From NCBI GenBank assembly GCA_036381415.1, contig DASVCV010000002.1:20091-84090 (forward strand): 64,000 nucleotides of DNA, read 5' to 3'. This DNA is from Patescibacteria group bacterium. GTDB taxonomy: Bacteria; Patescibacteriota; Microgenomatia; UBA8517. Below are positions 10,223 through 63,476 of the stretch, in pieces. Position numbers and translations under genes: made by a program. The first letter of the stretch is position 1; the number at the start of each line of letters is the position of its first letter. A model generated the notes under the pieces. That model worked only from the letters and a program-made list of their open reading frames with translations. It ran no database searches and had not been told where the DNA came from.

Positions 10223-10272
10223 AATTCATTATTGTCCAAAGATAAACCGAAGTCAAACATTTACCGAAGTTT

Positions 10273-10626: not shown

Positions 10627-10635
10627 GCCATTGGA

Positions 10636-10977
10636 TTAGTGGCTAGTATACCAAAAGTAAAGTTCAAAGGCGAGGGCAGTAGCGGTAATTAAAATTAGGT
10701 TTACGATGTTTCCTACTCCAAAGTATCTAAGAATTATAAATAAAGTAATGGCAGCTGCTGTGATTAATCCACGTCTGACATTTATGAAAATAGTTGTGAG
10801 TGAGAAAAAAAGAGTTGCAAAAACAATGGTAAAAAAGACAGGTACTGCCCCAAAGGTGTCTGGGTCTACAAAGACTATTATTAGAAGGAGTGAAATCCAG
10901 AGAAAAAGAGTGATTGCAAGAAGGGGAAAAAAGTTTTTTCTTTTCCTTATTTGGTTTTTGCGAATCTCACGTCTCAT
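10636..10977 (-). CDS. Small membrane protein (3-4 TM), unknown function.
   Basis: Hydrophobic 113-aa ORF. No motif recognised. Confidence 0.4.
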   Translation of the reverse strand: MRREIRKNQIRKRKNFFPLLAITLFLWISLLLIIVFVDPDTFGAVPVFFTIVFATLFFSLTTIFINVRRGLITAAAITLFIILRYFGVGNIVNLILITATALAFELYFWYTSH

Positions 10978-10994
10978 TGTATACTCATTATACG

Positions 10995-26019: not shown

Positions 26020-26023
26020 ATTA

Positions 26024-27520: not shown

Positions 27521-27597
27521 TTAATTTTTTATGAATATGAAGCTAGTCATTTCTAGCCCTATACCCATCATAGAAAGAGCTAGAGCTGGTGTCAAGT
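27521..27597 (-). pseudogene. Remnant copy of the 3' end (sorting-signal-encoding tail) of the 30045..31382 gene. It marks the junction of the tandem duplication.
   Basis: Translates to ...LTPALALSMMGIGLEMTSFIFIKN*, cf. ...DLTPTLALSMMGIGLVVTSFILWKKLEI* at the true gene end. About 70 nt of DNA are near-identical to 30069..30130. Confidence 0.55.
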
Positions 27598-27615
27598 AAA
27601 TTGTTTGTAAATTCT

Positions 27616-28332
27616 TTAGAGAGCAAGTATTACTGCTCCTATTAGAAGGACTATACCTCCTGCAATTGCAAGCCAGGTTGGAGTTGATACTCCAGCTTGG
27701 GGAAGAGCAGGTGCAGGGGTTGCAACTGTTGGTGTAGGAGTTGCAACTGCAATAGGTGTAGGAGTTGGGGTTGGTGTTGCACATACGCAAGTTGTGCTTG
27801 TAGTACATGATGGGTTTCTACATACTCCTGTAGTTCCAGAAGTTATATAACAGGTCATTCCAGATTGACAGTTTGCATCAGATCCGCAAGTTCCATTACA
27901 TGCATTTGGTGCTCCAGGTGTTGGAGTAGGAGTGGGTGTAGGAGTTGGAGTTGGTGTAGGTGTAGCTGTTGCACAAACACAGTTTGAGTTTGATGCACAG
28001 GATGGATTTACACAGATGTTGTTTCCAGATACTGTTTGGCAAGTTAGACCAGTTGGACAATTTGATTGACCACCTGGAGTAGTACAAGCTTCATAGCATT
28101 GAGGTACTGGTGTAGGAGTAGGAGTTGGTGTTTCAGCAGTAAGTGTAAAGGACAGTGCTTGGCAAGCAGGGTTTACTTGAGCACCTGGATTACTAGTAGG
28201 AGCAGCAGGAGAAACAGACTCTTGTCTTAACTGATATAGCCTTAAAGCAGTAAATACTGCAATTCCAGCAAGTATTACAGTTGCTCCTAGTATTAATATT
28301 GTTACTAAATTTTTCTTTACAAATGCTTGCAT
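27616..28332 (-). CDS. Cys-rich, Pro/Thr-linker-rich surface protein B1 (paralog of B2). Two copies of the 8-Cys module and an LPQAG sorting signal.
   Basis: N-terminal 40 aa and C-terminal about 95 aa are identical or near-identical to B2. The first domain is replaced by a second 8-Cys module (CYEACTTPGGQSNCPTGLTCQTVSGNNICVNPSCASNSNCVCA). Confidence 0.6.
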   Translation of the reverse strand: MQAFVKKNLVTILILGATVILAGIAVFTALRLYQLRQESVSPAAPTSNPGAQVNPACQALSFTLTAETPTPTPTPVPQCYEACTTPGGQSNCPTGLTCQTVSGNNICVNPSCASNSNCVCATATPTPTPTPTPTPTPTPGAPNACNGTCGSDANCQSGMTCYITSGTTGVCRNPSCTTSTTCVCATPTPTPTPIAVATPTPTVATPAPALPQAGVSTPTWLAIAGGIVLLIGAVILAL

Positions 28333-28341
28333 ATTATTTTT

Positions 28342-30033
28342 TTAATTCCATGTATTTAACGCTGCATGGTGAATTTGTGCTGTTACTGTGAAACTTGTTA
28401 CACCTACTGGAATTGTGTACTCATCATAGAACTCTTGAGTTGCTGCTGGTTTGGTTGTTGTTACTTCTGGTCTTAAGGTTCCATTAATAGTAAATCTTGC
28501 TTTATCAAATACTCCAGATGTGGTTGTTCCAGTTACAGTAAATCTAACCTTGTCTCCTGCTTTAAGAGCTGATAATTGAGTGGTTGTAAGCAGATTCCAG
28601 TTTGTGTCATATGCTTTTACAGCCTGACATTGTGCAGTGGAAGGAGCGGTTGATCCAGGAGGGTTGGTTGGTGTTGTTCCTCCACCAGTAGTTGGAGTAG
28701 TTGGTGCTTCAATGGTGCCAGCTGGTGCGGCGCAGGACTGGCGGTCGGCATCGTATGAACAAGATATGGTTCCATTGTTGCAGAAGCAGTCGTAATTGCT
28801 TGGTTGGTTGTAATGGTCACCGCAACCTGCAAATCCTCCACTGCCGACTGTGCGGCCATCATATACTCTACATGTGTTGCCAGTAGTTGGGGGAGTGCTC
28901 CCATTACAAGTGTGTGTTGTTTCGTTACAATCACCGCTTAAACAACTTGTGTCGTATATACAAGTTGCTCCGTCTGGCCTGTTGCCGATCTCACCGCAGC
29001 GGTCTGTACGGATACAATCCCATTGACCAAGAGCGTTACAGTATGCTTGTTGAGTTGGACCTGCGCCTCCTGCTGGTTCTCCGTTTGCACCACTACAGTC
29101 TCCGCAAGCTTTTCTGTCTCCTGTGGTACATACTCTTCCTGTAGCATTTGAATAACCTCCGCAGGCTATTAATGTACCAGCGTTGCCGTAGCAGACTTTC
29201 TGTCCGGATTTAACTGTTCCTGCAATACAGGTAATACAATGAAGTGGACTTGAGCAGTTTGCATCTGAGGTACAAGTATCGCCTTCCCCACCTGTTGTTG
29301 TGCCTCCTGGAGTTGTACCTCCGCCGCTGGTGGTTGCAGTTGGACAGCTTTCACCTGCTGGACAACATCTACCTAGATAGCTTCCATTAGATTGTTGACA
29401 ACCTGCACCTGGATATACATAAGTCCATCCTGTAGCTGGGCATTGTCCACGATCAGAACCACTTGATCCAGTACACCAAGCACCTGCAGGAGCCGTTGGT
29501 TGAGTTCCTCCACTACTTGGTTGAGAACACATGCCAAGAGTGTTGCTGCATCCAACTGCAGATCCTCCACCACCTGAACAGTTCCAGTTGTAGTTTCCAG
29601 GACATTCTCCTCTATTACCTACTCTACAATCTCCAGTACACCAGCCGCCTGCTCTTTGATTTAGAAGCTGTTGTCTTTGAGTAAGTGCTAATCCTGCTCC
29701 AACTCCTACTACTAAAAGAACTAATCCAAGAATTGTTGGAATGAGTGCCCTTCTTCTTGGTGAAGGAGGGGCAAAGTCTGTTTGTGGCGGGGTTGAAATT
29801 CCAGAATCAGGTGGAACTCCTCCTCCATTGCCTGTATCTTGTGGTGTTTCTGTTGGGAAGGTTGGACTTGTATCTGCTGGTTGAGTGGTAGTTGTGGTTG
29901 TTGTTTCTGTAACTGTTACAGGTGGTACAGATAATGGCTGGTCTGTAAGAGTTGGTGGAGTACTCGTACTTTGATCAGTAGGAAATGTAGGATTAGTAGA
30001 AGTATTTTGTTGATTTAGAGTACTATCTTGCAT
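28342..30033 (-). CDS. Large Cys-rich surface protein A1 (paralog of A2).
   Basis: Same N-terminal anchor (PRRRALIPTILGLVLLVVGVGAGLAL) and C-terminal domain as A2. A different Cys-rich central region of about 50 Cys, and a longer poly-Thr N-terminal segment. Confidence 0.6.
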   Translation of the reverse strand: MQDSTLNQQNTSTNPTFPTDQSTSTPPTLTDQPLSVPPVTVTETTTTTTTQPADTSPTFPTETPQDTGNGGGVPPDSGISTPPQTDFAPPSPRRRALIPTILGLVLLVVGVGAGLALTQRQQLLNQRAGGWCTGDCRVGNRGECPGNYNWNCSGGGGSAVGCSNTLGMCSQPSSGGTQPTAPAGAWCTGSSGSDRGQCPATGWTYVYPGAGCQQSNGSYLGRCCPAGESCPTATTSGGGTTPGGTTTGGEGDTCTSDANCSSPLHCITCIAGTVKSGQKVCYGNAGTLIACGGYSNATGRVCTTGDRKACGDCSGANGEPAGGAGPTQQAYCNALGQWDCIRTDRCGEIGNRPDGATCIYDTSCLSGDCNETTHTCNGSTPPTTGNTCRVYDGRTVGSGGFAGCGDHYNQPSNYDCFCNNGTISCSYDADRQSCAAPAGTIEAPTTPTTGGGTTPTNPPGSTAPSTAQCQAVKAYDTNWNLLTTTQLSALKAGDKVRFTVTGTTTSGVFDKARFTINGTLRPEVTTTKPAATQEFYDEYTIPVGVTSFTVTAQIHHAALNTWN

Positions 30034-30044
30034 CTTTTATTTTT

Positions 30045-31382
30045 TTATATTTCTAACTTTTTCCAAAGTATGAAGCTAGTCACTACTAGCCCTATACCCA
30101 TCATAGAAAGAGCTAGAGTAGGAGTCAAGTCACCAGACACTGGAATGGCACTCCCCGTGGCTGGAAGAGTAATTCTTGTTGTCCCAGATGTTGTTGAAAC
30201 AGGGGTTGGAGTTGGTGTTGGAATGGGAGTGGGTGTTGGAATAGGTGTAGCAGAACCAGATGCAACAAAAGCTGGTCCTTCAGAAGCTTGAACAACAAAT
30301 GTTTTTGTTAAGGTTTGCAGAATTCCTTGGGCGTCTGTCCAGGAAACTGAAAGAGTGTGAGTTCCTGGATCTAGATTTGCAGGTGGATTCCAGGTCCAGG
30401 TTCCATCAGCAGCAGCTGTAACTGTTGCCGTTTGGGGAGTGGACCTGACAGTAATAGTAATTTTTGTATTAGGAGTGGCAGTTCCCATGATTTGAGGTTT
30501 AGCAGTGGAAATTATTTCGCCATCTTTGATACTTGTAACGGTTACAGTTTTTGTTGTTCCTGAGGTTGTAGCAGTATTTCCTAAGTTAAAACCTGCTGAT
30601 GAAGTTGCTGTGTCAGGCAAATTAAGATTTGATTGAGGATTTCCTCCTTCGGTGTTACCAGGATTACTTCTAAAATCATATGTTTGTCCAAGTTTGATAA
30701 CAGGAGTTGGGTTGGCTGATTTAGGATAGATTTGAGCAGTTGAGACTCCACTTACTCCACCTTGAACAAAAATTTGAAGAAGAGTGGAGTCTGGGGAAAT
30801 AGTTGCATAACTTGTGAGATCTGGTTTAAGTGCAGTGCTAATTGGAATTACCCAATTACCGTTAGCTGAAGTTAAGGCAGACATTGGGTTAAATCCAGTT
30901 CCATTTACATAGACCAGAACTTCTGGAGCTGGAAGGCCACCTGCATCTTCAACTGTTCCTGATATCAAGATCTGAGTAGGAAGAGTGGATGTTGTTTGTG
31001 AGGCAGTTTGGGTGTTCCAAGGGATTCCTGAGTTGTCATAATCAGAGCCAGCTGAATTAATTTTAAAATAGTAGGGAGTTGATGGACTTAAGGTAGTTAC
31101 TTGGACCCAATGAATGGTGGTAGCAGTTTGGGAAGCAAGTGTTGTCTGGCTTAAACTGTCTTGACTTACCCCATATTTGACATATCCAACGGTTGGTTTG
31201 TCAGTAATCCAAGAAATTGCAAAAGAAGAGGAAGATTGGTTTGTTATTCTTACATCTTGGGGTGCAACATCAGGAGAAGCACCAAGCTTAAATTGCTTGG
31301 ATGTTGCAACAAGAAAAATACCTGCTCCCATACCAAGTACAAGAACTAGTATTCCTATTAGTGTTGGGATTTTCCCTCTCAT
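30045..31382 (-). CDS. LPXTG-anchored multi-domain surface protein (Fn3-like, CarboxypepD_reg-like and Ig-like domains, PT-rich stalk).
   Basis: N-terminal signal MRGKIPTLIGILVLVLGMGAGIFLV. Fn3-like region SFAISWITDKPTVGYVKYG...YYFKINSAG. Ig-like region DGTWTWNPPANLDPGTHTLSVSWTD. (PTPTPIPTPTPTP) stalk. C-terminal LPATG plus hydrophobic segment plus KKLEI, a canonical sortase signal. Confidence 0.65.
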   Translation of the reverse strand: MRGKIPTLIGILVLVLGMGAGIFLVATSKQFKLGASPDVAPQDVRITNQSSSSFAISWITDKPTVGYVKYGVSQDSLSQTTLASQTATTIHWVQVTTLSPSTPYYFKINSAGSDYDNSGIPWNTQTASQTTSTLPTQILISGTVEDAGGLPAPEVLVYVNGTGFNPMSALTSANGNWVIPISTALKPDLTSYATISPDSTLLQIFVQGGVSGVSTAQIYPKSANPTPVIKLGQTYDFRSNPGNTEGGNPQSNLNLPDTATSSAGFNLGNTATTSGTTKTVTVTSIKDGEIISTAKPQIMGTATPNTKITITVRSTPQTATVTAAADGTWTWNPPANLDPGTHTLSVSWTDAQGILQTLTKTFVVQASEGPAFVASGSATPIPTPTPIPTPTPTPVSTTSGTTRITLPATGSAIPVSGDLTPTLALSMMGIGLVVTSFILWKKLEI

Positions 31383-31717
31383 GGCGTGGTTCCTCCTGGA
31401 GTTGCTGACTGACTGGCAATTGGAGTTGCTGACTCACTTGCAACGGGTGTTGCAACAGGTGTTGGGGTAGGAAGAGTGGATGCAGTAACGGTATTATTTC
31501 CGATCTGGTCATCACTAAGGTACATTCTTTGTTGTAATTTATTTAGAGCAGCTACGTCAAGAGTGGGATTTAAGGGTGCAACAATTTCAGCAGGTACTGG
31601 GGGAGAAGGCTTTATAGTTAGGGTTCTATAAACCTCAAAAGCAATCCAGAAAAAGATTGTGATTAGGGTAATTATTGCAAGAGTTACTCCTGCTGGTGTT
31701 TTTATTCCTCTTTTCAT
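31379..31717 (-). CDS. Membrane-anchored Pro/Thr-rich protein co-transcribed with pilN/pilO. Possible pilus-associated component.
   Basis: 112 aa: N-terminal TM (MKRGIKTPAGVTLAIITLITIFFWIAF), then a PT/ATP-rich low-complexity tail. ATGA start/stop overlaps with both neighbouring genes. Confidence 0.45.
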   Translation of the reverse strand: MKRGIKTPAGVTLAIITLITIFFWIAFEVYRTLTIKPSPPVPAEIVAPLNPTLDVAALNKLQQRMYLSDDQIGNNTVTASTLPTPTPVATPVASESATPIASQSATPGGTTP

Positions 31718-32379
31718 TTTGTTTGGGCTGTTTGAGCTTCCTGGTAAGGGGCTCTTCCTTCTATGGTTAGATATAAATTTTTAACATTATCAATTTCTGT
31801 TGCAGTAAAATTTAGACTGTCAAAGACAAGAGGACGTCTTAAAAGTTCAATATCTGCAAGGAATGTTGAGATGGTGTTGTAGTCGCCTGCTACTGAAATA
31901 GATACTCCAACCCCTGAACTTCCTTGCGGAAGAGTTTTTCTTTGATCAGGGGGACCTGCAAGAACAGGGGAAGTCCCTGCAAGAGTTATTTGTTCACTTC
32001 CTATGTTTTGAGTAACAACATTATCTTTTTTAATTACTCCTTCAATTTGGCGGATGTATTGACCAAGAGATGGAGATGTGGGAACTGCATCAGAAAGAAG
32101 AGCAATATTTGCCTGTTGGGATGCAAGAATACTCTGAGCTTGCTGAAGGTTTAGGATTTTAGCATCCATTTGTTCTATGGTTTTTTGCTTTTCATTAATT
32201 TCTGTTAAGAGGTTAGAGATGGTAAGGGCAGTTGGCTTAATGGCAAAGATTGAAAAAAGGCCAATAGTAACTATGGAAAGTAGAAGCTCAAGAAAGGCTT
32301 TTAAGTCTGGCCTTCTTTTGTAAAGAGCCATTAAGTTAAATAGATACTGTTGTCCTCTAAAGTAGCTTTTAGGTCCCAT
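31714..32379 (-). CDS. pilO: Type IV pilus assembly protein PilO.
   Basis: Basic N-terminus plus one TM and a coiled coil. C-terminal ISVAGDYNTISTFLADIELLRRPLVFDSLNF is similar to the PilO core. Start uncertain: 32379 or 32331, while the ORF track gives 32484. Confidence 0.65.
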   Translation of the reverse strand: MGPKSYFRGQQYLFNLMALYKRRPDLKAFLELLLSIVTIGLFSIFAIKPTALTISNLLTEINEKQKTIEQMDAKILNLQQAQSILASQQANIALLSDAVPTSPSLGQYIRQIEGVIKKDNVVTQNIGSEQITLAGTSPVLAGPPDQRKTLPQGSSGVGVSISVAGDYNTISTFLADIELLRRPLVFDSLNFTATEIDNVKNLYLTIEGRAPYQEAQTAQTK

Positions 32380-32953
32380 TTGGTTTAGGCGTAGCTGCCA
32401 CTCCTTTCTGTGTAGCAAGAACTTGGAAAGTGATATTGCCTGTTGTTTGGTCAATTGTGGTTTGAGTAAGAGATACTTTATCAAACATATTTGGGATTGC
32501 TTTTAAGTTTGCAATAAATGTACCTGCTCCAACTTCTGAGGTGGAAGTTGCTCTAATTTCAACTGCAGATGCATCTACTGAAAGAAATGTTATTTGGACA
32601 GTATCAGGAAGAGCAGTTGTTAGGGTTTGAAGAAGAGGAATGTATTTGCTTTTGTCATATGCAACAGAAGAGAAAATGGCTAACTCTTTTTGAGCTTCTC
32701 TAAAGTTCTTTTCAACTTGGGCATATGAGGTAATAACTGCCTTTTTTTGATTTATAGCTTCTGTTAGGTCGCTTACTTTGGAGTCAAGCCAGAATCTAGA
32801 GAGAAATGCTCCCATTACGACCATTTCAGTTGCAATGACAATGAGCCTAAATGAAGAAATAAGCCATCTAAAAATTCTTCCTAGAGTGGATGATTCGAAC
32901 TCTTCTTGTGGAAGAAGATTGATCCTTGGTTCTTTAGTGTTGCGGGCAGCCAT
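32369..32953 (-). CDS. pilN: Type IV pilus assembly protein PilN.
   Basis: The hallmark N-terminal INLLP motif (PRINLLPQEE), a single TM, a coiled coil and a C-terminal ALPDTVQITFLSVDASAVEIRATS region. Confidence 0.75.
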   Translation of the reverse strand: MAARNTKEPRINLLPQEEFESSTLGRIFRWLISSFRLIVIATEMVVMGAFLSRFWLDSKVSDLTEAINQKKAVITSYAQVEKNFREAQKELAIFSSVAYDKSKYIPLLQTLTTALPDTVQITFLSVDASAVEIRATSTSEVGAGTFIANLKAIPNMFDKVSLTQTTIDQTTGNITFQVLATQKGVAATPKPNGT

Positions 32954-54346: not shown

Positions 54347-55063
54347 TTAAAATTTGTGCCTCATCCAATTTTTGGCATTTCTTTTTGCTTCTTCTTTTGT
54401 AATAACTTTAAGATGTACGTCCATCCCCATATTTGGATCCACATTGTCTGAAATAAGGTGTGTGGGGGCATTTTCAATTTTTGTAATAATATTTCTTAAG
54501 TCAAAAATAAAAGATCTGATTGGCAGATGAGTAGTGTCTTTGAGCTTATATATATTTTTTGAAAAGAAACCATTGTCTTTAGGTCCTTTTTGTAGAGATT
54601 TAAGGCACCTAATACCTTCCTCATACCTTACTTCATCAGATTGGAAGTTTTCAAAGTTTGTATAGGTTTGAGGCTTTGCTGTGTTTTGAATATGTATATA
54701 TGGCCACAAAGAGGCAAGGAAGGATTTTAAGTCTTTGTTATCCAGTAGTTTGAAAACTGCGTTTGACTGCAGTCTCCTTTTAATCCATGTATCAAGTGTG
54801 ACGTTTTGTAGTTCTGGGTAGGTAAGATTTAAAAATTCATTTAATTGGGATACTCTTATTCCTAAGCGTTCTGCTTCGATTTTTAGAGAGCAGTTGCGAA
54901 GTTTAAGCCAAGAGGCACCTTCTACTTTTGGCTCTTCCTTTTGTGCCATTGCGTTTTTGGGAACATCGACAGATTGTGGCTGTTGCCCACAAAAACCTTC
55001 TCTTTCCAGGTGGTATGAATAAGCTGACATACGGAAGTTTTCACTTTCGGCTATATGATACAC
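54347..55063 (-). CDS. Hypothetical soluble protein (238 aa).
   Basis: Long ORF with no competing frames. No motif recognised. Confidence 0.45.
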   Translation of the reverse strand: MYHIAESENFRMSAYSYHLEREGFCGQQPQSVDVPKNAMAQKEEPKVEGASWLKLRNCSLKIEAERLGIRVSQLNEFLNLTYPELQNVTLDTWIKRRLQSNAVFKLLDNKDLKSFLASLWPYIHIQNTAKPQTYTNFENFQSDEVRYEEGIRCLKSLQKGPKDNGFFSKNIYKLKDTTHLPIRSFIFDLRNIITKIENAPTHLISDNVDPNMGMDVHLKVITKEEAKRNAKNWMRHKF

Positions 55064-55066
55064 CTT

Positions 55067-56920
55067 TTAGGCAAGTATTTTATATCTTAGGACTCTAAAG
55101 GAGTTAAGTATGGGGAAGAAGTCAGTTACAAAATTATAGGCAGCTGCTCCTTGGGGTCCCATCTGGGAGGTAAGAACTAGTGTTAAGCCTATTGTGTTGA
55201 CTATACCCCAAATTAAAAAGTTTTGTTTTGAAATATTAGTTGTGTAGCGGCCGAGTTTGATTGCCTCAGCTACTTTAGAAAAATTATCCTGCATTAGGGC
55301 TATATCTGCTGCTTCAATTGCAGCATCAGATCCGATTGCACCCATTGCAATTCCAATATCTGCTAAGGCAAGGGAGGCGGCGTCATTTACTCCATCTCCT
55401 ACCATTGCCAATTTACCTTTTTTACTTAAATAAGTTTTGACATATTTAAGTTTGTCTTGGGGAAGAAGATTGGCATGGAATGTTGTAATGCCTACTTCTC
55501 TTGCTACACGGCTTGCCACATTTTCATTATCTCCCGTAAGCATGATAATGTCTTTTACACCTAAAGTTTTGAGCTTTGCGATAGTTGATTTGGCATCAGG
55601 ACGAATTTGGTCTGCAAGGGTTAGAAATGCTGCGAGCTTTCCTTTTATTCCGAGAAAGACCACGTCATATCCATCTTTTTGGTAGTCTTGGGCTGTTTTT
55701 ATCTGGTCTTGGGTTACTTCTACTTTTTCTTCTGAAACAAATCTTTGGCTTCCTACAACAACCTTGCTTCCGTTATAAGTAGCTACAATTCCTTTTCCTG
55801 CTACTTCTTTAAAGTTTTGAGGAGTTTTAATAGGGACACCATCATTTTTTGCATGCTGCGTTATTGCTTTTGCAATTGGATGTTCGGAAACTGATTCAAT
55901 GGATGCAAAAATGGAAAGAGCCTCATGACTTTTTAGCTTGCCAAAAGTGATAATTTTTTCAGTTTTAACAATTCCTTTTGTTAGAGTTCCTGTTTTATCA
56001 ACTATTATAGTATTAACTTTGGCAAGTCCTTCTATGAAGCTTCCTCCTTTAATAATTATTCCTTGTCTTGCCCCTTTTGCTATTGCACTCCAGAAGGCTA
56101 AAGGAATTGCTACTGCGATGTCATCAGCACATGCTACAAGAAGAACTGAAAGAACTATTGAGAGGTTGGAAGTTAAGAGATAAACTGCGATGGATCCAAA
56201 AAGAGTGATAAGAATATAGACAGTTGCAAATTTGTCAGCAACAGTTTGAATTCCAAGTTTCCCTCCTTGGGCTGACTCAACAAGTGCTACTATTTTTTCA
56301 AAAGTGGTGTCTTTACCTACTTTTTCTGTTTTAACAATTAAAGATCCTGTTAGACAAAGAGTGGAGCTTAACACTTTATGACCTTTTGTTTTAGTAACTG
56401 GAATTGATTCGCCTGTAAGGGAGGATTGATCAATTGAGGCATCTCCTTCAACTATTATTCCGTCGATCGGGATTCTATCTCCTGTTTCAACAACAACTAA
56501 ATCCCCTACATTTACATGTTCTACTGGTTCTTGAACAATTCCACCTTCTTTTTTTATTTTTACAATTTCTGGGCGGAGCTTAAGAAGACTTTTAATGGCA
56601 TCATGTGCTTTACCTTCTGTGTAGTCGCCAAAAATACGGGCTGAAGTGATCATTAGATTAATGAAAACTACAGATGCCCACTCACGGTTAAGAAGGGAAA
56701 CAAAAAGTGCAATGGAGGCGAGTAGGTCAACTGTTACTTTTCTATGTCTGACTGCTTTGAGTGCACTTAGCACTACAGGAATTGTTGCAAAGGTGCCAAC
56801 AATAACTATTAGAGTGTTTTCTGTCATGAATGGAAAGAGTTTTAGGTAATAGGTAACTAGAGAGAGAATAAGAGCTATAAGAAGAGCAATATTTAATTTA
56901 AGTGAGAGAGATTTATCCAT
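55067..56920 (-). CDS. P-type ATPase, P1B-like architecture lacking both an N-terminal metal-binding domain and the CPx motif.
   Basis: LTGESIPV (actuator TGES), VDKTGTLT (phosphorylation site), SEHPIAKA (P1B HP motif), MLTGDN, GDGVNDAASL. TM6 reads VACADDIAV where CPC is expected. Confidence 0.8.
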   Translation of the reverse strand: MDKSLSLKLNIALLIALILSLVTYYLKLFPFMTENTLIVIVGTFATIPVVLSALKAVRHRKVTVDLLASIALFVSLLNREWASVVFINLMITSARIFGDYTEGKAHDAIKSLLKLRPEIVKIKKEGGIVQEPVEHVNVGDLVVVETGDRIPIDGIIVEGDASIDQSSLTGESIPVTKTKGHKVLSSTLCLTGSLIVKTEKVGKDTTFEKIVALVESAQGGKLGIQTVADKFATVYILITLFGSIAVYLLTSNLSIVLSVLLVACADDIAVAIPLAFWSAIAKGARQGIIIKGGSFIEGLAKVNTIIVDKTGTLTKGIVKTEKIITFGKLKSHEALSIFASIESVSEHPIAKAITQHAKNDGVPIKTPQNFKEVAGKGIVATYNGSKVVVGSQRFVSEEKVEVTQDQIKTAQDYQKDGYDVVFLGIKGKLAAFLTLADQIRPDAKSTIAKLKTLGVKDIIMLTGDNENVASRVAREVGITTFHANLLPQDKLKYVKTYLSKKGKLAMVGDGVNDAASLALADIGIAMGAIGSDAAIEAADIALMQDNFSKVAEAIKLGRYTTNISKQNFLIWGIVNTIGLTLVLTSQMGPQGAAAYNFVTDFFPILNSFRVLRYKILA

Positions 56921-56970: not shown

Positions 56971-58308
56971 ATGCAAGCAAATGAAGTAAGAGAAAAGTAT
57001 TTAAAGTTTTTTGAAAAGAGGGGCCACAAGCGAATTGACCCGGCTTTACTTGTTTTAAAAGAAGACCCTACAACTTTGTTTACCTCTTCTGGAATGCAAC
57101 CTTTGGTTCCTTATTTAATGGGAAAAGATCATCCAGAAGGAAAAAGACTGGTTGATTCACAACCTTCTTTAAGGGCACAAGACATAGAAGAAATTGGAGA
57201 CAACCGTCATCAGACTCTTTTTGAGATGCTAGGGAACTGGAGTTTAGGAGATTATTTTAAAAAAGAACAGATCCCTTGGTTTTATGAATTTATGACTGGT
57301 GAACTTGGACTTCCAAAAGATAAGCTTTATGTGACTGTCTTTGAAGGGAATGACCAGGTTCCTAAAGATGAAGAAACTCATGATCTTTGGAAATCTTTGG
57401 GGATAGCAGAAGATCACATTTATTTTTATGGAGACAAGAAGAACTGGTGGAGTAGGGCTGGTACTCCTGATCAGATGCCTGATGGAGAAATAGGAGGACC
57501 TGACTCTGAAGTATTTTTTGAATTTGGTTCTGTGAAACATGACAAGAAGTTTGGAGACAAATGTCATCCAAACTGTGATTGTGGAAGGTTTTTAGAAATT
57601 GGCAACTCTGTTTTTATGCAATACAAAAAGCAAGCTGGGAAACTTGTTGCATTGCCTAAGAAAAATGTGGATTTTGGTGGAGGGTTAGAACGTCTGACTG
57701 CTGCAACCAATAATAATCCAGATACTTTTAGTACAGATTTGTTTTCTATGATTATTGAGGAAATCGAAAAGGCTTCTGGGAAATCTTATGGAGAAGAGAA
57801 AAACAAAGGAGCAATAAGAGTGGTTGCGGATCACATGAAGGCTGCTACTTTCTTAATTAAAAGCGGAGTGGTGCCTTCTAATAAATATCAAGGATATATT
57901 TTGAGAAGACTTCTTAGGAGAGCTGCACTTAAGATGAGAGATCTGAAAGGTGAAATAAACGGAAATGTTTTAGCAGGAGTTCTTGATGCAGTAGTTTCTA
58001 CTTATAAAGGTGTTTATTTTGATGAGAAAGATAATGTAGGAAGCTACAAAGATATTGTAAGAGAAGAAGTAGGAAAGTTTGCTAAGAATGTTGAAAAGGG
58101 GTTAAGCAAAATGGAAAAAGTGAGGAAAGAAGATATTAATGCAAAGTTTGCTTTTGATCTTTTTCAGTCAGAAGGATTTCCTTTTGAAATTACTCAAGAG
58201 CTTGCAGCTAAAAAAGGTGTTAGGCTTTTAAGAGAAGAATTTGAAAAAGAGATGGAAAAGCACCAGAATATATCTAGAGAAGGATCAGGGGTATTTAAAA
58301 TAAAATAA
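56971..58308 (+). CDS. alaS: Alanyl-tRNA synthetase, catalytic plus tRNA-recognition domains only (no editing or C-Ala domains).
   Basis: KFFEKRGHKRIDPALLV...TLFTSSGMQP (motif 1), NRHQTLFEMLGNWSLGDYFK (motif 2), FGGGLERL (motif 3). The ORF stops at 445 aa and the next ORF is unrelated. Confidence 0.85.
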   Translation: MQANEVREKYLKFFEKRGHKRIDPALLVLKEDPTTLFTSSGMQPLVPYLMGKDHPEGKRLVDSQPSLRAQDIEEIGDNRHQTLFEMLGNWSLGDYFKKEQIPWFYEFMTGELGLPKDKLYVTVFEGNDQVPKDEETHDLWKSLGIAEDHIYFYGDKKNWWSRAGTPDQMPDGEIGGPDSEVFFEFGSVKHDKKFGDKCHPNCDCGRFLEIGNSVFMQYKKQAGKLVALPKKNVDFGGGLERLTAATNNNPDTFSTDLFSMIIEEIEKASGKSYGEEKNKGAIRVVADHMKAATFLIKSGVVPSNKYQGYILRRLLRRAALKMRDLKGEINGNVLAGVLDAVVSTYKGVYFDEKDNVGSYKDIVREEVGKFAKNVEKGLSKMEKVRKEDINAKFAFDLFQSEGFPFEITQELAAKKGVRLLREEFEKEMEKHQNISREGSGVFKIK

Positions 58309-58310
58309 TT

Positions 58311-58736
58311 ATGGCAGAGGAGAAGAAAAAGGATTCAGGAGCAACGGGATTTTTAAACAAATACTGGTGGGTTTTACTTGGTGGGTGTGGTTGTATTGTT
58401 GTTATTCCATTTGTTATTGCTTTTGTTGTGGGAGTTTTGTTAGTTGCTGTAAATCCAGCTGCTCAGATTAACAAAGCAAAAGATGCAAGAAGAAGTAATG
58501 ATCAGGTTCATGTGCAAACGGCACTTGAGAGCTACTATATTGATAAGAGTGTATATCCAACTTCTTTAGATGAATTGGTACCGTACTATATGGCTCTTGT
58601 TCCAGTTGAAACTGATTCTCAGGTTGCTCCTTATAAATATACAGTTTTAGATAAAGGGATAAATTATCAGTTTTGTGTAACTTATTCATCTGGTGAGTTT
58701 AAGTGTGTTGACTCCAAAAGCGTTATAGGTAGATAA
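58311..58736 (+). CDS. Type IV pilin / pseudopilin-like protein with an atypical N-terminus.
   Basis: A 29-residue hydrophobic segment followed by AAQINKAKDARRSNDQVHVQTALESYYIDKSVYP (pilin alpha1-beta fold signature). It lacks the canonical G|F-x-x-x-E prepilin site. Confidence 0.5.
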   Translation: MAEEKKKDSGATGFLNKYWWVLLGGCGCIVVIPFVIAFVVGVLLVAVNPAAQINKAKDARRSNDQVHVQTALESYYIDKSVYPTSLDELVPYYMALVPVETDSQVAPYKYTVLDKGINYQFCVTYSSGEFKCVDSKSVIGR

Positions 58737-58784
58737 TTTTCAATTTAATAACAGGCTTGGTCGTGCTACAATGATTCTTAACTC

Positions 58785-61031
58785 ATGGAAGAACATTTTT
58801 GGTCTTTAGCTCTTGAAACCGGCTGGGTGCAGGCGGCTATTTGGACGATTAAAGAAAAAGAAGCACATGTTGTTGCAGTTTCAAATGCAGTTGCTTGGGA
58901 AAGTGATGAAGACTTACTTAGTGCCTGTGACACAGTTCTTTCTTCCATAGTTTCAGGACTAGCTGAAAATGCAAAGGAACCTTCTAAGACTGTATTTGGT
59001 GTTCCACCTGGATGGGTAGGAGAAGGGCAAATTAAAAAAGAATATTTAGATAGAATTAGAAATATATGCCACAAATTATCTCTTGAACCTTCTGGGTTTG
59101 TAGTACTGCCTGAAGCTATTGCTCATTTCAAAAAATCTGAAGAGAATGCACCTGTTTCTGGAGTAATTGTTGGAGTAGGAACAGATGCATTAGATATTAC
59201 TGTTGTTAGACTTGGAACAATTATTGGAACAGTTAATGTGGGAAGAAGTTTGTCTGTTTTAGATGATGTTGTTGAAGGAATTGCAAGGTTTGGGGGGGCA
59301 GAGCCATTTCCTTCAAGATTTTTAATATATGATGGGAAGAGTGCTGAATTGGAAGATGTAAGGCAGGAACTTATAAAAGCGGATTGGACAGGTGAGCTTA
59401 AAACAAAAGCTAAGTTTCTTCATACTCCACAGGTGGAAATAGTTGATCCAAAAATGAAAATGGTTGCAGTGAGTCTAGCTGGAGCTAGTGAAATAGGGCA
59501 GGCAAATGTGGTTACTTTTGATTTGGGAGAAGAAAAGGCTGAAAAACTAAAAGAGGAAAAGCCAGAAATAAAAGTAGAACAACCTAAAGAGGATTTGAGT
59601 TCTCATGAGAATTTGAGTGAGGTGGCAAAAGCTACTGATTTTGGTTTTGTAATGGATCAAGATATAAATGAAGTTGCAGGTGCAACAAATCCTAACCCAG
59701 TTCAGACTTCAGCCAATACTCCTAGTTTTGTAACTTCTCCTCATCCAGTTTCTAACCCTTTTCCTCGTAATCCAATTAGTAAAATCAAGCATAATATAGT
59801 AAGGTTACCTTTGATTTTAAGCGGAGCTTGGCCGCTTTCAGCGGTGAAAGGAAAAATGGATCAAAGAAATAAAATTAGCATGCCTGGTGGAGAAGCTAGA
59901 AAGAAAATGCCTATTATTTTGGCAATAGCTGGGGCAGCTCTTTTGATATTTGGATTTATTGGATGGTGGTTTTTACCAAAAGCTGAAGTGACTATTTTTG
60001 TTTCTCCAAAAAAGATTGAACAAAAGCAGCTTATAACATACGATCCAAAACTTACTGATCCTGATATTTCAAAAAGACAACTTCCTATTTCAACTGTTTC
60101 CACTTCAGTAAGTGGAGATAAGACAAAATCTACAACTGGGACTTTAACTATTGGGGATAGGGCAAAGGGATCAGTTGTTATTAGAAATGGAGGATCAGAT
60201 GATATTGGTCTTACAGCTGGAACAATTTTAACAGGACCAAATAGTCTTAAATTTAGTCTTGATAATGGAGCTTCTGTTTCTGCTGCAACATCCCCATCAA
60301 ATCCTGGAACTGCAACAATTTCTGTAACAGCTTCTGGGATTGGAGCAGAATACAATTTGGCTAAGGGAGAAACACTTCAGGTGGGGAATTTTTCAAAAAG
60401 CCAGGTGGATGCTTTAGTGGATTCAGATTTTTCAGGTGGGTCAAGCCAGGAAGTGGTTGCAGTTTCCAAAGATGATTTATCAGTTTTGCAGAAAGATTTA
60501 ACTAGTGAATTGACTGAAAAAGCTCAAAACCAATTAAAGGAAAAACTTGGGGATGATGAGATACTGCTTGATCCTGCTACGATTGCAACAGCTTCTGGAA
60601 TAACTTATGATCATGTTGCAGGGGATCAGGCTTCAACACTTAAACTTAGTGAGAACTTAAGCCTTACCAGTTATGTAGTTTCAAAAAAGAATTTAGGGAA
60701 TTTGGCTAGGGATATTGTAAAAGGACAGGTGCCTAATGGGTTTGTTGTTAAGGATGATCAGATAAGTACTAATTTTGATACAAAATTGGGATTAGTTGAT
60801 GGAGTGTGGAAGCTAGATACTACATTTAATGTTAATTTGTTACCACAGATTAATACTGATGATATTGCTAAAAAAATTGCAGGCAAATCTCAAAAAGCAG
60901 CGCAAGAAATATTATCTAGGATAGCAGGTTATGTGAGAGCTGAGATACACCTGACAAAAGGTTTTCCCAGCTTTGGTACTTTACCTCATGTTGTTAAAAA
61001 TATTTCTGTTGAGTTGTCCTCAGAAAAATGA
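58785..61031 (+). CDS. Bitopic protein: N-terminal actin-like (ASKHA, PilM/GspL-cytoplasmic-domain-like, degenerate) domain, one TM, and a about 340-aa extracytoplasmic Thr/Ser-rich beta domain.
   Basis: SLALETGWVQA and VIVGVGTDALDITVVRLGTIIG resemble the phosphate-1 and phosphate-2 regions of the actin fold with substitutions. TM at about aa 385-405. ATGA overlap with the sortase gene. Confidence 0.45.
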   Translation: MEEHFWSLALETGWVQAAIWTIKEKEAHVVAVSNAVAWESDEDLLSACDTVLSSIVSGLAENAKEPSKTVFGVPPGWVGEGQIKKEYLDRIRNICHKLSLEPSGFVVLPEAIAHFKKSEENAPVSGVIVGVGTDALDITVVRLGTIIGTVNVGRSLSVLDDVVEGIARFGGAEPFPSRFLIYDGKSAELEDVRQELIKADWTGELKTKAKFLHTPQVEIVDPKMKMVAVSLAGASEIGQANVVTFDLGEEKAEKLKEEKPEIKVEQPKEDLSSHENLSEVAKATDFGFVMDQDINEVAGATNPNPVQTSANTPSFVTSPHPVSNPFPRNPISKIKHNIVRLPLILSGAWPLSAVKGKMDQRNKISMPGGEARKKMPIILAIAGAALLIFGFIGWWFLPKAEVTIFVSPKKIEQKQLITYDPKLTDPDISKRQLPISTVSTSVSGDKTKSTTGTLTIGDRAKGSVVIRNGGSDDIGLTAGTILTGPNSLKFSLDNGASVSAATSPSNPGTATISVTASGIGAEYNLAKGETLQVGNFSKSQVDALVDSDFSGGSSQEVVAVSKDDLSVLQKDLTSELTEKAQNQLKEKLGDDEILLDPATIATASGITYDHVAGDQASTLKLSENLSLTSYVVSKKNLGNLARDIVKGQVPNGFVVKDDQISTNFDTKLGLVDGVWKLDTTFNVNLLPQINTDDIAKKIAGKSQKAAQEILSRIAGYVRAEIHLTKGFPSFGTLPHVVKNISVELSSEK

Positions 61032-61714
61032 GAAGTAGTTTCTTCGTAAAAATACTAGCTATTGCTTGTGGAATAGGTGGAGTTGGAATTTTGGCTTGGG
61101 TTTTTTTACCAATCTTTTTTTATGAGTTTACTGCACCACCACTAATGTCTTATCTATCTCCACTTCCTGATAACACTCAAGCTGCAAATAGTACTAACGG
61201 AAGCTTTGATGATACTAAGGCAAGCAACTGGTTTGTGGGATCTAATCCATCTGATTTTAAAAAAGGAAGTGTTACTTTTTATAACTTATCAATTCCGAGA
61301 TTAGGAATTTCTGATGCTGTAGTTGCAGTTGGAGGAGAGGATTTATCACAATCTTTAATTCAATATCCTGGAACTGCCTTACCAGGCAGACCTGGGAATG
61401 CTACAATTTTTGGACATTCGGTACTTCCTCAGTTTTATAGTGCTACAAACTATCTAACTATTTTTTCAGACTTACCTAGCTTACAAAAGGGAGATGGAAT
61501 AAGTATAAGATCTGATGGAATAAGTTATGAATATAGAGTGGAGGAAAAATTTGAAGTACTACCTACTGATGTGCAAGTGCTAGAGCAAAATTTAAGTGAT
61601 TCATTTTTAACTTTGGTTACTTGTGTTCCACCTGGAGATCCAAGACGTCCAAGAAGGCTTATAATAAGGGCAAGGATTGTTCCTTTGCAAAATACAAATA
61701 CGGGACAGAATTAA
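61028..61714 (+). CDS. Sortase (transpeptidase) family protein.
   Basis: N-terminal TM. TIFGHSV (catalytic His), LTLVTCVPPG (TLxTC catalytic Cys) and a downstream Arg-rich region (DPRRPRR). Confidence 0.8.
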   Translation: MRSSFFVKILAIACGIGGVGILAWVFLPIFFYEFTAPPLMSYLSPLPDNTQAANSTNGSFDDTKASNWFVGSNPSDFKKGSVTFYNLSIPRLGISDAVVAVGGEDLSQSLIQYPGTALPGRPGNATIFGHSVLPQFYSATNYLTIFSDLPSLQKGDGISIRSDGISYEYRVEEKFEVLPTDVQVLEQNLSDSFLTLVTCVPPGDPRRPRRLIIRARIVPLQNTNTGQN

Positions 61715-61731: not shown

Positions 61732-62106
61732 ATGAAAATTTTGGGAATTGATTTTGGATTAAAAAAATTAGGGTTAGCAATATCTGATGGAAAGTTGGCT
61801 GAACCTTATGCTGTTGTGAGATACCAAAATGAAGAAAAACTTATTAATCATTTGAAAGGAATTATTAAGAAAGAAGGTATAGAAGAGGTAATAGTTGGAG
61901 TGTCTGAAGGAGGAATGGGAGAGCAGTCAAAAAAGTTTGGAGAGAAGATTAGTGAGTTTATAAGAACTGAATACCAAGATGAGACATTAACTACACAGGA
62001 TGCAAATAATTTAGCTATTTCATCAGGTATTTCAAGGAAGAAAAGAAAAAGTATGGAAGATGCATATGCTGCTTCTTTGATGCTTCAGGACTACTTGGAC
62101 AGATAA
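61732..62106 (+). CDS. ruvX: Holliday junction resolvase-like / pre-16S rRNA nuclease YqgF (RuvX).
   Basis: MKILGIDFGLKKLGLAISDG is a RuvX signature. Confidence 0.85.
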   Translation: MKILGIDFGLKKLGLAISDGKLAEPYAVVRYQNEEKLINHLKGIIKKEGIEEVIVGVSEGGMGEQSKKFGEKISEFIRTEYQDETLTTQDANNLAISSGISRKKRKSMEDAYAASLMLQDYLDR

Positions 62107-62163: not shown

Positions 62164-62364
62164 ATGTTTAAAAATGTAATATCACCAATTCAGGCGTGGC
62201 TTTTATCTCAGGGAAGATGTGTAGGATGTGGAATGCCTTTGTCTCAGGGAAAGGTTGAGAAGCACAAAGGGGGAGATGAAAAAATAACTTGTAAGTGCAA
62301 GAGAATTTATATTAGAGATGGAAAGACTAAAAGATATAGACGTGCACTTCTTGAAGAGGTCTAA
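62164..62364 (+). CDS. Small zinc-ribbon protein.
   Basis: 66 aa. CVGC ... CKCK pair and a basic C-terminus. Confidence 0.35.
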   Translation: MFKNVISPIQAWLLSQGRCVGCGMPLSQGKVEKHKGGDEKITCKCKRIYIRDGKTKRYRRALLEEV

Positions 62365-62385: not shown

Positions 62386-63366
62386 GTGAAGAAAAAACTT
62401 ACTTTAATTCCAGCTTTAATTTTGGTTTTACTTGTTGGTGGGGCTATTTTCGTCTCTTATCAACTCCGTGCTCCTAATACTAATAAAGGAACTCAAAGAT
62501 TTATTATTGAGAAAGGTAGTTCTGGAGCTGCAATTGCCAACAAGCTAGAAAAGCAAGGAATTATTAGAAATGGTTTAGTTTTTAGACTGTATACAAAGTT
62601 TACAGGGGTAGCTACTAGAATCCAGTCTGGAGAATATGAACTAAGTTCTAATCTTACTGTTCCAGTTTTAGTTGCAACTTTACTTAAGGGCCCAACTGAA
62701 GTTTGGGTAACAGTTCCTGAAGGATTAAGAAGGGAAGAAGTAGTACAAACCTTAATAGAGGATATGAAGCTTACTGGAACTAGAGCTAGTACTTTTTCTT
62801 CTGACTTTTTAAATGGAACTATTGGGAAAGAAGGGTATTTGTTTCCTGATACTTATTTAATTTCACTTGATGCTAATGCAAATAGTGTTATTAAAGTAAT
62901 GGAAAGTACTTTTGAGAAAAAATATGCAGATGCTTCCAAAACTCAAACAGCAAGTTTGAATCGTGAACAAGCAGTGATCCTAGCTTCTATTATTCAAAGA
63001 GAAGCAATAACGGCAGAGGATATGAAGGGAGTTGCTTCGGTACTTGAAAATAGGTTAGCAATTGGAATGGCATTGGGGTCTGATGTAACAGTGGAATATG
63101 GATTAGGATATGACCCAGTTGAAAAAACTTGGTGGAAAAAAGATCTGACTGCAGATGACCTTGCAATTAATAGTCCGTATAACACAAGGATAAATGCTGG
63201 TCTTCCTCCTACTCCAATTAGCAACCCAGGATTAGTTGCCTTAGAGGCAGCACTTAATCCGCCACAGACTAATTATTTGTATTATCTTTCTGATTCGGAC
63301 GGAAAACTTCATTTTGCGACAACCCTTGAGGAACATAATGCAAATATACAAAAATACTTACAGTAG
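62386..63366 (+). CDS. mltG: Endolytic murein transglycosylase MltG (YceG family).
   Basis: N-terminal TM, LRAP-like region, SPYNTRINAGLPPTPISNPG (YceG signature). Lies after ruvX as in the conserved alaS-ruvX-mltG neighbourhood. Confidence 0.85.
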   Translation: MKKKLTLIPALILVLLVGGAIFVSYQLRAPNTNKGTQRFIIEKGSSGAAIANKLEKQGIIRNGLVFRLYTKFTGVATRIQSGEYELSSNLTVPVLVATLLKGPTEVWVTVPEGLRREEVVQTLIEDMKLTGTRASTFSSDFLNGTIGKEGYLFPDTYLISLDANANSVIKVMESTFEKKYADASKTQTASLNREQAVILASIIQREAITAEDMKGVASVLENRLAIGMALGSDVTVEYGLGYDPVEKTWWKKDLTADDLAINSPYNTRINAGLPPTPISNPGLVALEAALNPPQTNYLYYLSDSDGKLHFATTLEEHNANIQKYLQ

Positions 63367-63451
63367 GTATTGACAGATGAATTGATGAGTTCTAGACTTT
63401 CTTTTTAGAGATGATTAAGGAAAGGATACGAGGAGGTTTAGATAAGCTGCA

Positions 63452-63476
63452 GGGAGCCGAAGGGCTCCTTTTTTTT
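63452..63476 (+). terminator. Rho-independent terminator downstream of mltG.
   Basis: GGAGCC-gaag-GGCTCC perfect 6-bp GC-rich stem, followed by a T9 tract. Confidence 0.6.

Follow-up and report, generated by a model that had tools for sequence, protein, structure and literature searches.

The 64,000-nucleotide stretch of DNA analysed here (the window) contains three open reading frames between alaS and ruvX, encoding a 141-residue pilin-like protein, a 748-residue bitopic protein (X748) and a sortase. The question raised by this locus is whether the three constitute a type IV pilus (T4P)-like module inserted among housekeeping genes, as proposed in a first-pass annotation, or whether the sortase has some other relationship with its large neighbour. 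All of the genes are on the forward strand. The alaS gene (56971–58308) encodes a 445-residue protein with only the catalytic and tRNA-recognition core (Pfam tRNA-synt_2c, 2e-111), and is followed by the 141-codon ORF (58311–58736), the X748 gene (58785–61031), the 228-codon sortase gene (61028–61714), ruvX (yqgF; 61732–62106; PF03652, 3.7e-26), a 66-codon ORF (62164–62364) whose Cys-rich product (CxxC...CxC) matches no Pfam family above cut-off, and mltG (yceG; 62386–63366; PF02618, 1.3e-79). AlaS, the sortase, RuvX and YceG/MltG are assigned by both Pfam and NCBIfam. The stop codon of X748 and the start codon of the sortase gene overlap as ATGA in the window sequence, and this overlap, alaS, the bitopic 748-residue protein, ruvX and mltG are all as first annotated. 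The co-directional string probably ends at mltG, beyond which there is a terminator-like hairpin at 63451–63470. Two sigma-70-like promoter matches (TTGACT-18-GATAAT, 10/12, and TTAATA-16-TG-TACAAT) are positioned just 5' of X748 at 58708–58772 on the forward strand. They are weak evidence for a promoter; the total number of matches across the region is no higher than in shuffled sequences.

The gene order rnj-ftsK-rodZ-like-80aa-alaS-X748-sortase-ruvX-66aa-mltG is near-invariant in 86 Microgenomates loci, with ruvX found in 81 and the 66-codon ORF matched by tblastn in 75. X748 is followed by the sortase gene in 83 of the 86, in different species, and the spacing is between -4 and +30 nt in 66 of these 83, including 21 with overlaps (-4 or -1) and 45 with gaps of 0–30 nt. 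Exceptions are found at locus L032, where a 1440-codon gene separates X748 and the sortase gene, and at L074, where ruvX directly follows X748. We recovered more than 600 full-length homologues of X748, all of them from the Microgenomates group; across more than 100 orthologues identity is 42–48% over the full length, and 46 invariant positions are distributed over both domains. More than 80 species carry the gene at a common chromosomal site. Because order and spacing are kept in the Microgenomates loci, the pair is ancestral in the class Microgenomatia (Woesebacteria and relatives) and not a mobile insert, and its two genes are co-transcribed; the coupling noted in the first pass is real and extends over 83 loci, and the synteny comparison that had been proposed to look for mobility reveals a fixed pair. 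Of the three genes described as extra, only the 141-codon ORF, present in one genome, is so. The string around the pair is housekeeping in nature and envelope-flavoured. As it also contains alaS and ruvX, adjacency within it corresponds to co-transcription and does not imply shared function. The sortase family was previously described as 'near ubiquitous in Microgenomates', in a study reporting 35 Microgenomates-enriched families, mostly hypothetical, of which 14 are membrane proteins (Meheust et al. 2019, PMC6744442).

The 141-codon gene is a lineage-specific acquisition, unrelated to X748 and the sortase and outside of the conserved module. None of the 86 related loci has it, and a word-indexed search of 5.8 billion clusters returned only a self-match and no close homologue; an exhaustive search identified 1254 distant relatives (E≤1e-3), some of which exceed the Pfam T2SSG cut-off. 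The proposal that it encodes a pilin fold without a G|FxxxE site is borne out, as the AlphaFold2 model (pLDDT 86) has the alpha1 helix (residues 16–79, kinked at Pro49) and beta-sheet (three-stranded) specified beforehand as the fold to look for, the top four Foldseek matches in the PDB are PulG and pilins (prob 0.99 and 0.98 for the first two), and the family profile matches GspG in the PDB (1.8e-5). The long kinked alpha1 followed by a small beta-sheet resembles type IV pilins and GspG, as do two conserved cysteines near the C-terminus, and the profile similarity to GspG spans the C-terminal part of alpha1 and the beginning of the head domain. Unlike pilins, the protein has a charged N-terminal tail and then an uncleaved anchor of 30 uncharged residues (18–47), such that it is bitopic with a pseudopilin-like (GspG-like) extracellular domain. 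Neither a G|F(M)-x-x-x-E prepilin peptidase (class III) site nor Glu5 can be read in the sequence, the sole Gly-Phe being G13-F14 with Tyr at position +5, and the class III signal is also absent from the family consensus. In its relatives the domain is frequently found at the C-terminus of multipass membrane proteins (RDD, UPF0259-like), and it is therefore a membrane-tethered ectodomain rather than a polymerising pilin. The window AlaS lacks the tRNA_SAD domain (PF07973) carried by its 575–589-residue relatives, and no SAD remnant was found anywhere in the window; in this lineage AlaS has thus shed its C-terminal domain, and the 141-codon gene fills the gap.

The sortase is membrane-anchored and scores well above cut-off against PF04203 (2e-24, 86 bits, cut-off 26.6) and above it for TIGR01076 (46.9, cut-off 39.35). 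Every NCBIfam model for the individual classes (A–F) falls below its cut-off, the closest being class E/C (class E: 3.7e-13, 49.8 bits, cut-off 160). The catalytic triad is intact, with the His (FGHS), Cys (TC) and Arg kept in 83 orthologues, and together with the N-terminal transmembrane anchor and a TLxTC-type motif it resembles that of the class A and class E housekeeping sortases. In Actinobacteria the class E sortase gene is also located among cell-wall and division genes. The Microgenomates enzyme differs from classes A and E in that a large bitopic non-substrate protein is encoded just before it, often overlapping, and we know of no sortase that requires a partner such as X748. As with Gram-positive housekeeping sortases, candidate substrates with LPxTG-like signals, of the general form [LVI]PxTG, are encoded in the same genome. 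A sorting-signal scan identified a 445-residue FN3/Ig-like surface protein (30045–31382, reverse strand; Pfam Big_13/fn3) that ends with LPATGSAIPVSG, a transmembrane segment and KK (LPATG/IPVSG); its orthologues keep [VI]P[VA][ST]G and the transmembrane segment, and to judge by these sequence features it is probably a sortase substrate. Two further window ORFs, of 238 and 242 codons, end with LPQAG plus a transmembrane segment and are additional candidates. The gene for the 445-residue protein shares an operon with pilN-pilO, located 26 kb from X748 behind rpsT.

X748 was modelled with AlphaFold2 (pLDDT 83 overall) as a cytoplasmic domain, a linker, a transmembrane helix and an ectodomain. 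The cytoplasmic domain (58785–59525, residues 1–247, folded from 1 to 245, with pLDDT >90) is predicted to consist of two plain beta-beta-beta-alpha-beta-alpha-beta-alpha halves with no inserted subdomains. Its Foldseek matches in the PDB include Ppx/GppA, EutJ, the HgdC activator, PilM and FtsA (4a2b), the best of these being the Ppx/GppA phosphatases; the TM-score against PilM, normalised on PilM, is 0.42–0.48 (0.46 for 5eox_B). This is an ASKHA fold, the outcome specified in advance for an actin-like domain, and the description of that domain as degenerate also holds: in an alignment of 69 sequences the motifs are ExG (E11 invariant), GVGxxxLE in place of DxGGGTxD, and LAGASE, and the phosphate-2 aspartate is lost. 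The domain is therefore more likely to be a protein-binding pseudo-ATPase than an enzyme, although the invariant acidic residues (E11, E110, D161, E164, E236) and the Ppx/GppA proteins as best matches leave room for an enzymatic role. The disordered cytoplasmic linker (59526–59900, residues 248–372, about 125 residues, pLDDT <50) contains the motif [ED]-D-phi-G-F-phi-phi-x-x-D-[VI] at residues 284–294 (nt 59634–59666), with G287 and F288 invariant and D293 at least 90% conserved in the 69 sequences, and a basic phi-phi-x-K-phi-K element precedes the membrane. The single transmembrane helix (59901–59975, residues ~373–397, helical at 375–396 in the model) is oriented N-in/C-out, with RKK on its N-terminal side; the WWFLPKA motif is conserved.

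The ectodomain (59976–61031, residues 398–748, about 350 residues) is indeed large and Ser/Thr-rich, as annotated in the first pass (20% Ser+Thr, compared with 12% in five housekeeping proteins encoded in the window), and its fold is that of a baseplate-J/wedge subunit. Foldseek matches it to baseplates (7kh1_A5, 1e-6; 8kea_b, 1.7e-6) and to about 20 BFVD models named baseplate J or wedge (E down to 3.8e-7, 330–430 aligned columns). The whole ectodomain aligns structurally with the baseplate J/gp47/T4 gp6/TssF wedge family (PF04865), and a weak sequence similarity covers about 100 residues; the Pfam Baseplate_J match to X748 (1.4e-3, 18.4 bits) is below the cut-off of 21.1, PF04865 is precomputed on several orthologues, and PHROG phrog_6 (baseplate wedge) matches at 5.5e-4 to 8e-3. 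Baseplate J proteins are soluble parts of contractile tails, with genes beside those for gp25/W-like and gp7/I-like partners, whereas X748 is membrane-anchored, fused to a cytoplasmic ASKHA domain and chromosomally encoded, and neither the 86 loci nor the window, as far as it was annotated, contains tail, sheath or spike genes.

The reading of X748 as a PilM+PilN or GspL-type fusion stands with regard to topology and the ASKHA fold, but not to the ectodomain or to sequence. In its complete form this reading makes X748 the alignment protein, akin to GspL or to PilM+PilN, of a T4P-related machine, with the 141-residue protein as its pilin and the sortase as part of the same apparatus. [quoted passage not shown] The pilin fold of the 141-residue protein is consistent with such a machine, as are the pilN-pilO genes, which have no adjacent pilM and encode a PilN that keeps INLLP, the PilM-binding motif. 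However, the supposed pilin gene is confined to this genome and lacks the class III signal, and there are no T4P or T2SS genes, nor GspE or GspF/GspM, within 5 kb on either side of X748 in any of the 86 loci, where the neighbours are housekeeping genes only. The proposal of a single T4P-like module is not supported. T2SSL/GspL_C does not match X748 in Pfam, and no PilM, GspL, PilN or PilO signal was obtained in Pfam, NCBIfam (E≤0.1) or a PDB profile search (E≤10), in which the profile of 69 orthologues matched no chain at all. PilM (PF11104) is soluble and cytoplasmic with an extra 1C-type subdomain forming the PilN-peptide groove, whereas the 245-residue domain of X748 is minimal, without an inserted PilM/FtsA 1C-type subdomain, is at least as close to Ppx/GppA and EutJ as to PilM, and is joined through a 125-residue linker to a membrane helix; outside, the baseplate-J-like domain replaces the ferredoxin-like domain of about 80–100 residues (GspL_C), and the genomic partner is a sortase rather than GspE/F/M or PilB/C/O. 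Moreover, a complete Microgenomates genome carries PilM in its own T4P locus (PMC7143001), and every X748 homologue recovered belongs to the Microgenomates group, in contrast to T4P genes, which have been reported throughout the CPR, the larger radiation of ultra-small bacteria that includes this group. A role for X748 in pilus alignment is improbable.

That X748 is a component of the divisome or elongasome, a membrane-anchored protein resembling an FtsA/MreB adaptor with the sortase only a neighbour, is unlikely. The conserved string does encode FtsK, an HTH_25/RodZ-like bitopic protein and MltG, FtsA (4a2b) is among the ASKHA matches, and the conserved linker peptide could dock a cytoskeletal protein; but alaS, rnj and ruvX in the same string make the neighbourhood weak evidence, the tightest and commonest coupling is to the sortase, and X748 lacks both a 1C subdomain and an amphipathic helix of the FtsA type and has no sequence similarity to FtsA. 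This explanation overlaps with a sortase-associated scaffold and does not exclude it. The baseplate-J fold, the weak sequence matches and the NCBI name 'baseplate J/gp47 family protein' on some orthologues could also suggest that a prophage or contractile injection system left the ectodomain behind as a remnant, within a decaying or fortuitous fusion. This is extremely improbable and is effectively refuted by the conservation of X748, which retains its full length and has residues that are invariant in each domain, occupies one chromosomal position in more than 80 species with no further phage or injection-system genes nearby in any locus, and has a confidently predicted structure.

We tentatively favour a role for X748 as a Microgenomates-specific trans-membrane scaffold that, with the housekeeping sortase, acts in surface-protein or wall assembly. 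By analogy with phage baseplates, the ectodomain is assumed to oligomerise at the outer face of the membrane, where it would recruit, position or regulate the membrane-anchored sortase, or its substrates or products, wherever the wall is being synthesised; an intracellular partner would be tied to these sites through the cytoplasmic domain and the linker peptide. Counted in favour of this role are the synteny, the junction, the conservation, the folds, the degenerate motifs, the triad, the study of Meheust et al. 2019, the window substrates and the absence of the pilin-like ORF from the related loci; counted against it are the separability of the pair at L032 and L074, the lack of a sorting signal in X748, the absence of any known sortase that needs such a partner, and the features of the ASKHA domain that would fit an enzyme. 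If the pair does work together, X748 would be the first dedicated non-substrate partner of a housekeeping sortase, and would represent the recruitment of a fold known from phage baseplates to the surface of bacterial cells.

The architecture of X748 is undescribed and the X748–sortase combination is an uncharacterised pair; we found no description in the searchable literature of an ASKHA domain, transmembrane helix and baseplate-J-like ectodomain in one protein, or of such a protein paired with the near-universal sortase of its lineage. Microgenomates are abundant, uncultured, ultra-small bacteria with genomes of about 1 Mb, and that essentially every species recovered nonetheless retains a 750-residue protein at a single locus suggests that this protein is likely to be important for the envelope or an epibiotic life. 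A more elaborate scenario, and one we consider quite unlikely, is that X748 derives from a phage baseplate-wedge protein that was domesticated and fused across the membrane to the degenerate actin-like domain, and that it oligomerises into a Microgenomates-specific trans-envelope platform; with its co-translated sortase this would nucleate or anchor a cell-surface structure, for instance the Ig-like proteins that are anchored in the wall and share an operon with pilN-pilO, and thereby the passage through the wall of pili or a host-attachment organelle. Such a platform would add a new type to the known sortase-dependent assembly machines. For annotation, the locus is not a pilus module, and the 'baseplate J/gp47 family protein' label does not denote a prophage.

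The first-pass annotation had the coordinates and gene calls between alaS and mltG right. The gene alaS (56971–58308; catalytic domain only by Pfam and NCBIfam) is followed by a pilin-like 141-aa ORF (58311–58736), the 748-aa bitopic ORF referred to here as X748 (58785–61031), a 228-aa sortase gene (61028–61714; PF04203, 2e-24, Pfam and NCBIfam), ruvX (61732–62106), a 66-aa Cys-rich ORF (62164–62364) and mltG (62386–63366), with RuvX and YceG/MltG identified by Pfam and NCBIfam. The ATGA common to the X748 stop and the sortase start, also reported there, can be read in the sequence. X748 is identical to an entry labelled 'hypothetical protein' in a Patescibacteria MAG, and the window comes from the core chromosome of a CPR bacterium of Microgenomates type. 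An Rfam search of the window gave no matches, and a promoter and terminator scan yielded no more than suggestive sites, in numbers not above those in shuffled sequences. The 66-aa protein between ruvX and mltG has a CxxC...CxC pattern without any matching Pfam family, and is kept in 75 of 86 Microgenomates loci.

An AlphaFold2 model of X748 built on 69 orthologues has a mean pLDDT of 83, exceeding 90 in both folded parts. Residues 1–245 form two successive beta-beta-beta-alpha-beta-alpha-beta-alpha units, a predicted minimal ASKHA/actin-like core without inserted subdomains, and are followed by a disordered linker (248–372), a single transmembrane helix (~373–397) with RKK just before it, and an ectodomain (398–748) that is rich in beta structure and has a single long helix. 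In a Foldseek comparison with the PDB, the N-terminal domain matches many ASKHA proteins, with Ppx/GppA at the top (6e-8), followed by EutJ, HgdC-type activators, PilM (1.6e-6, TM-score on target of about 0.46) and FtsA. The nucleotide motifs are altered in the alignment of orthologues: phosphate-1 is ExG with E11 invariant, the phosphate-2 motif 'DxGGGTxD' has become 'GVGxxxLE' with the Asp replaced by an invariant Gly, and the adenosine motif is 'LAGASE'. The linker, though disordered, keeps the peptide [ED]-D-phi-G-F-phi-phi-x-x-D-[VI], in which G287 and F288 are invariant. Pfam, NCBIfam and a PDB profile search (E<=10) gave no signal for PilM, FtsA, GspL, PilN or PilO in X748; the PDB profile search, which was also the sequence route to its ASKHA subfamily, returned no matches at all. 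The model, the structural matches and the altered motifs confirm the first-pass description of a degenerate actin-like domain, one transmembrane segment and a large external domain.

The external domain is not PilN/PilO/GspL-like but has a baseplate-wedge fold by Foldseek, matching phage baseplate complexes in the PDB (7kh1_A5 and 8kea_b) and, among predicted viral structures, about 20 proteins named 'baseplate J' or 'baseplate wedge' over 330–430 columns. Sequence searches are in weak agreement with a baseplate fold: Pfam Baseplate_J reaches 1.4e-3 on X748, under the cut-off, several orthologues have PF04865 among their precomputed domains, and PHROG phrog_6 (baseplate wedge) matches X748. 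We rejected X748 as a sortase substrate because it is without a C-terminal sorting signal; its conserved C-terminal 'LPGxLGTLP' is inside the folded domain, with no transmembrane segment after it.

X748 has more than 600 homologues, and the top 120 are, almost without exception, full-length and 42–48% identical; the named organisms among these 120 are Woesebacteria, Curtissbacteria or Microgenomates. Window proteins were compared by tblastn against 86 loci, 80 from a scan in which each GTDB species was represented by one genome and six from exact look-ups, in which the order rnj-ftsK-rodZ-like(HTH_25)-80aa-alaS-X748-sortase-ruvX-66aa-mltG is near-invariant. A sortase gene was found in 84 of the 86 loci and lies directly 3' of X748 in 83 of the 86. 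The junction is operonic and often overlapping, with an overlap (−4 or −1) in 21 of the 83 and a gap of 0–30 nt in 45, and the sortase is intact, its His, Cys and Arg all being conserved. No T4P (type IV pilus), T2SS or phage-tail genes are present within 5 kb in any of the 86 loci. Given the near-invariant order and pairing, we therefore conclude that X748 and the sortase are an ancestral fixture of this class and not a mobile insertion. Mobility, raised on the first pass as a question for comparative synteny, is rejected since the position is fixed across the 86 loci and the GC content of the locus (0.33–0.39) is like that of adjacent sequence. The class-wide conservation fits the findings of Meheust et al. 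2019 (PMC6744442), who report a sortase family near-ubiquitous in Microgenomates and 35 Microgenomates-enriched families that are mostly hypothetical, with 14 predicted membrane proteins.

Breaks of the pair are rare. In one related locus (L032) a 1440-aa coiled-coil-rich ORF lies between X748 and the sortase gene, the site being given as 7210–11532, and in another (L074) ruvX is directly 3' of X748, with no sortase on the short contig. Elsewhere in the string, the 80-aa gene is separated from alaS by two ORFs on the minus strand (54347–56920), one for a 617-aa P-type ATPase and the other a 238-aa orphan; L003, the closest relative, has the ATPase as well, and in the other relatives examined alaS is directly after the 80-aa gene.

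The 141-aa ORF is outside this conserved module: tblastn found it in none of the 86 loci, and a word-indexed search of 5.8 billion clusters returned the self-match alone. AlaS is 575–589 aa long with a tRNA_SAD (editing-type) domain in more than 80 related species; it ends at 445–446 aa in the window and in L003, whose X748 is 79% identical to that of the window and which has two unrelated small ORFs in the gap where the window has the 141-aa ORF. No tRNA_SAD remnant or stand-alone SAD/AlaX-like sequence was found in the window, and the 141-aa ORF thus fills the room left when AlaS was truncated in this lineage. That it is itself a disguised tRNA_SAD remnant (445 + 141 giving ~586 aa) was rejected, as none of the reading frames shows similarity to that domain and the ORF clearly belongs to a family of pilin-like proteins. 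This is a real domain family, with 1254 relatives at E<=1e-3 by exhaustive phmmer; some are bitopic proteins of 130–190 aa, the others form the C-terminal module of a multipass membrane protein (RDD, UPF0259-like), and two are above the Pfam T2SSG cut-off. In the PDB, the first matches to a profile of 27 members are pilins and GspG pseudopilins (1.8e-5), and the AlphaFold2 model (pLDDT 86) has a long helix kinked at Pro49 and a three-stranded sheet, with PulG and type IV pilins as its four best PDB matches. The G|FxxxE signal is absent from the protein and from the family consensus. The pilin fold and the missing processing signal noted on the first pass are both borne out, and the protein is not a pilin able to polymerise but a pseudopilin-like ectodomain tethered to the membrane.

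About 26 kb upstream in the window, directly behind rpsT, is a conserved operon (30045–32953, minus strand) of pilN, a pilO-like gene, and genes for a transmembrane protein of ~115 aa (112 aa here) and an FN3/Ig-like protein of ~445 aa, the last three genes overlapping by 4 nt. PilN has the N-terminal peptide MAARNTKEPRINLLPQEEF and carries an INLLP PilM-binding motif. Other Microgenomates keep the operon, again with no pilM beside it (orthologous operons at 8001–10944 of L088 and 8001–10921 of L089), and preserve its sorting-like motif, [VI]P[VA][ST]G; the C-terminus of the 445-aa protein consists of LPATGSAIPVSG, a transmembrane segment and KK, and its orthologues end with VPASG and VPVTG followed by a transmembrane segment. 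In these single-membrane cells, this protein may be a part of the pilus machinery that is anchored to the wall. Proteins of the sortase-substrate type are present in the window: two further ones, of 238 and 242 aa, end with LPQAG and a hydrophobic tail, and they and the 445-aa protein stand out as candidates for cleavage by the sortase. A tandemly duplicated gene pair occupies 25291–30033 (minus strand). Its 563- and 498-aa products are Cys-rich and secreted with a common C-terminal domain, and its 238- and 242-aa products are Thr/Pro- and Cys-rich, with near-identical N-termini and an LPQAG end whose hydrophobic tail lacks basic residues; in L089 there is a single copy, ending LPKAG.

A plausible but tentative explanation, which we favour, is that X748 is a trans-membrane scaffold that organises or regulates sortase attachment of surface proteins. 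The baseplate-like ectodomain probably oligomerises, and would organise or regulate sortase-mediated anchoring to the wall, with the pseudo-ATPase domain and linker peptide binding a cytoplasmic partner. X748 is built of known folds, and such logic is like that of known bitopic ASKHA scaffolds. A role in the divisome or elongasome, suggested by ftsK, the rodZ-like gene and mltG as neighbours, partly overlaps with the scaffold reading and is rather less likely. The T4P/GspL-like role proposed on the first pass is unlikely: PilM is reported to be encoded in the T4P locus of a complete Microgenomates genome (PMC7143001), and X748 is therefore not needed as PilM. Nor is a sortase coupled to pilus assembly proteins what is present, with pilN-pilO ~26 kb off and T4P genes absent from the surrounding 5 kb. 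We consider it highly improbable that X748, baseplate-like as its ectodomain is, represents a phage remnant. The ASKHA domain could possibly be an enzyme, as in structure it matches Ppx/GppA best and it keeps several invariant acidic residues.

A literature search gave no description of the X748 architecture or of its pairing with a sortase, and nothing relevant came up when baseplate J was paired with Patescibacteria or with sortase, or FtsA with Microgenomates; a preprint on the CPR 'Pam pilus' has sortase in its introduction only and leaves alaS, ruvX and mltG unmentioned. A sortase coupled to pilus assembly proteins would be the more striking arrangement, but the pair is a worthwhile uncharacterised envelope-associated one, class-wide in a poorly understood lineage. 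Elsewhere in the window, a 357-aa LAGLIDADG-type homing-endonuclease-like ORF (9149–10222, minus strand) overlaps the start of the methionyl-tRNA synthetase gene region (7783–9207) and may be an intein or intron-associated element.
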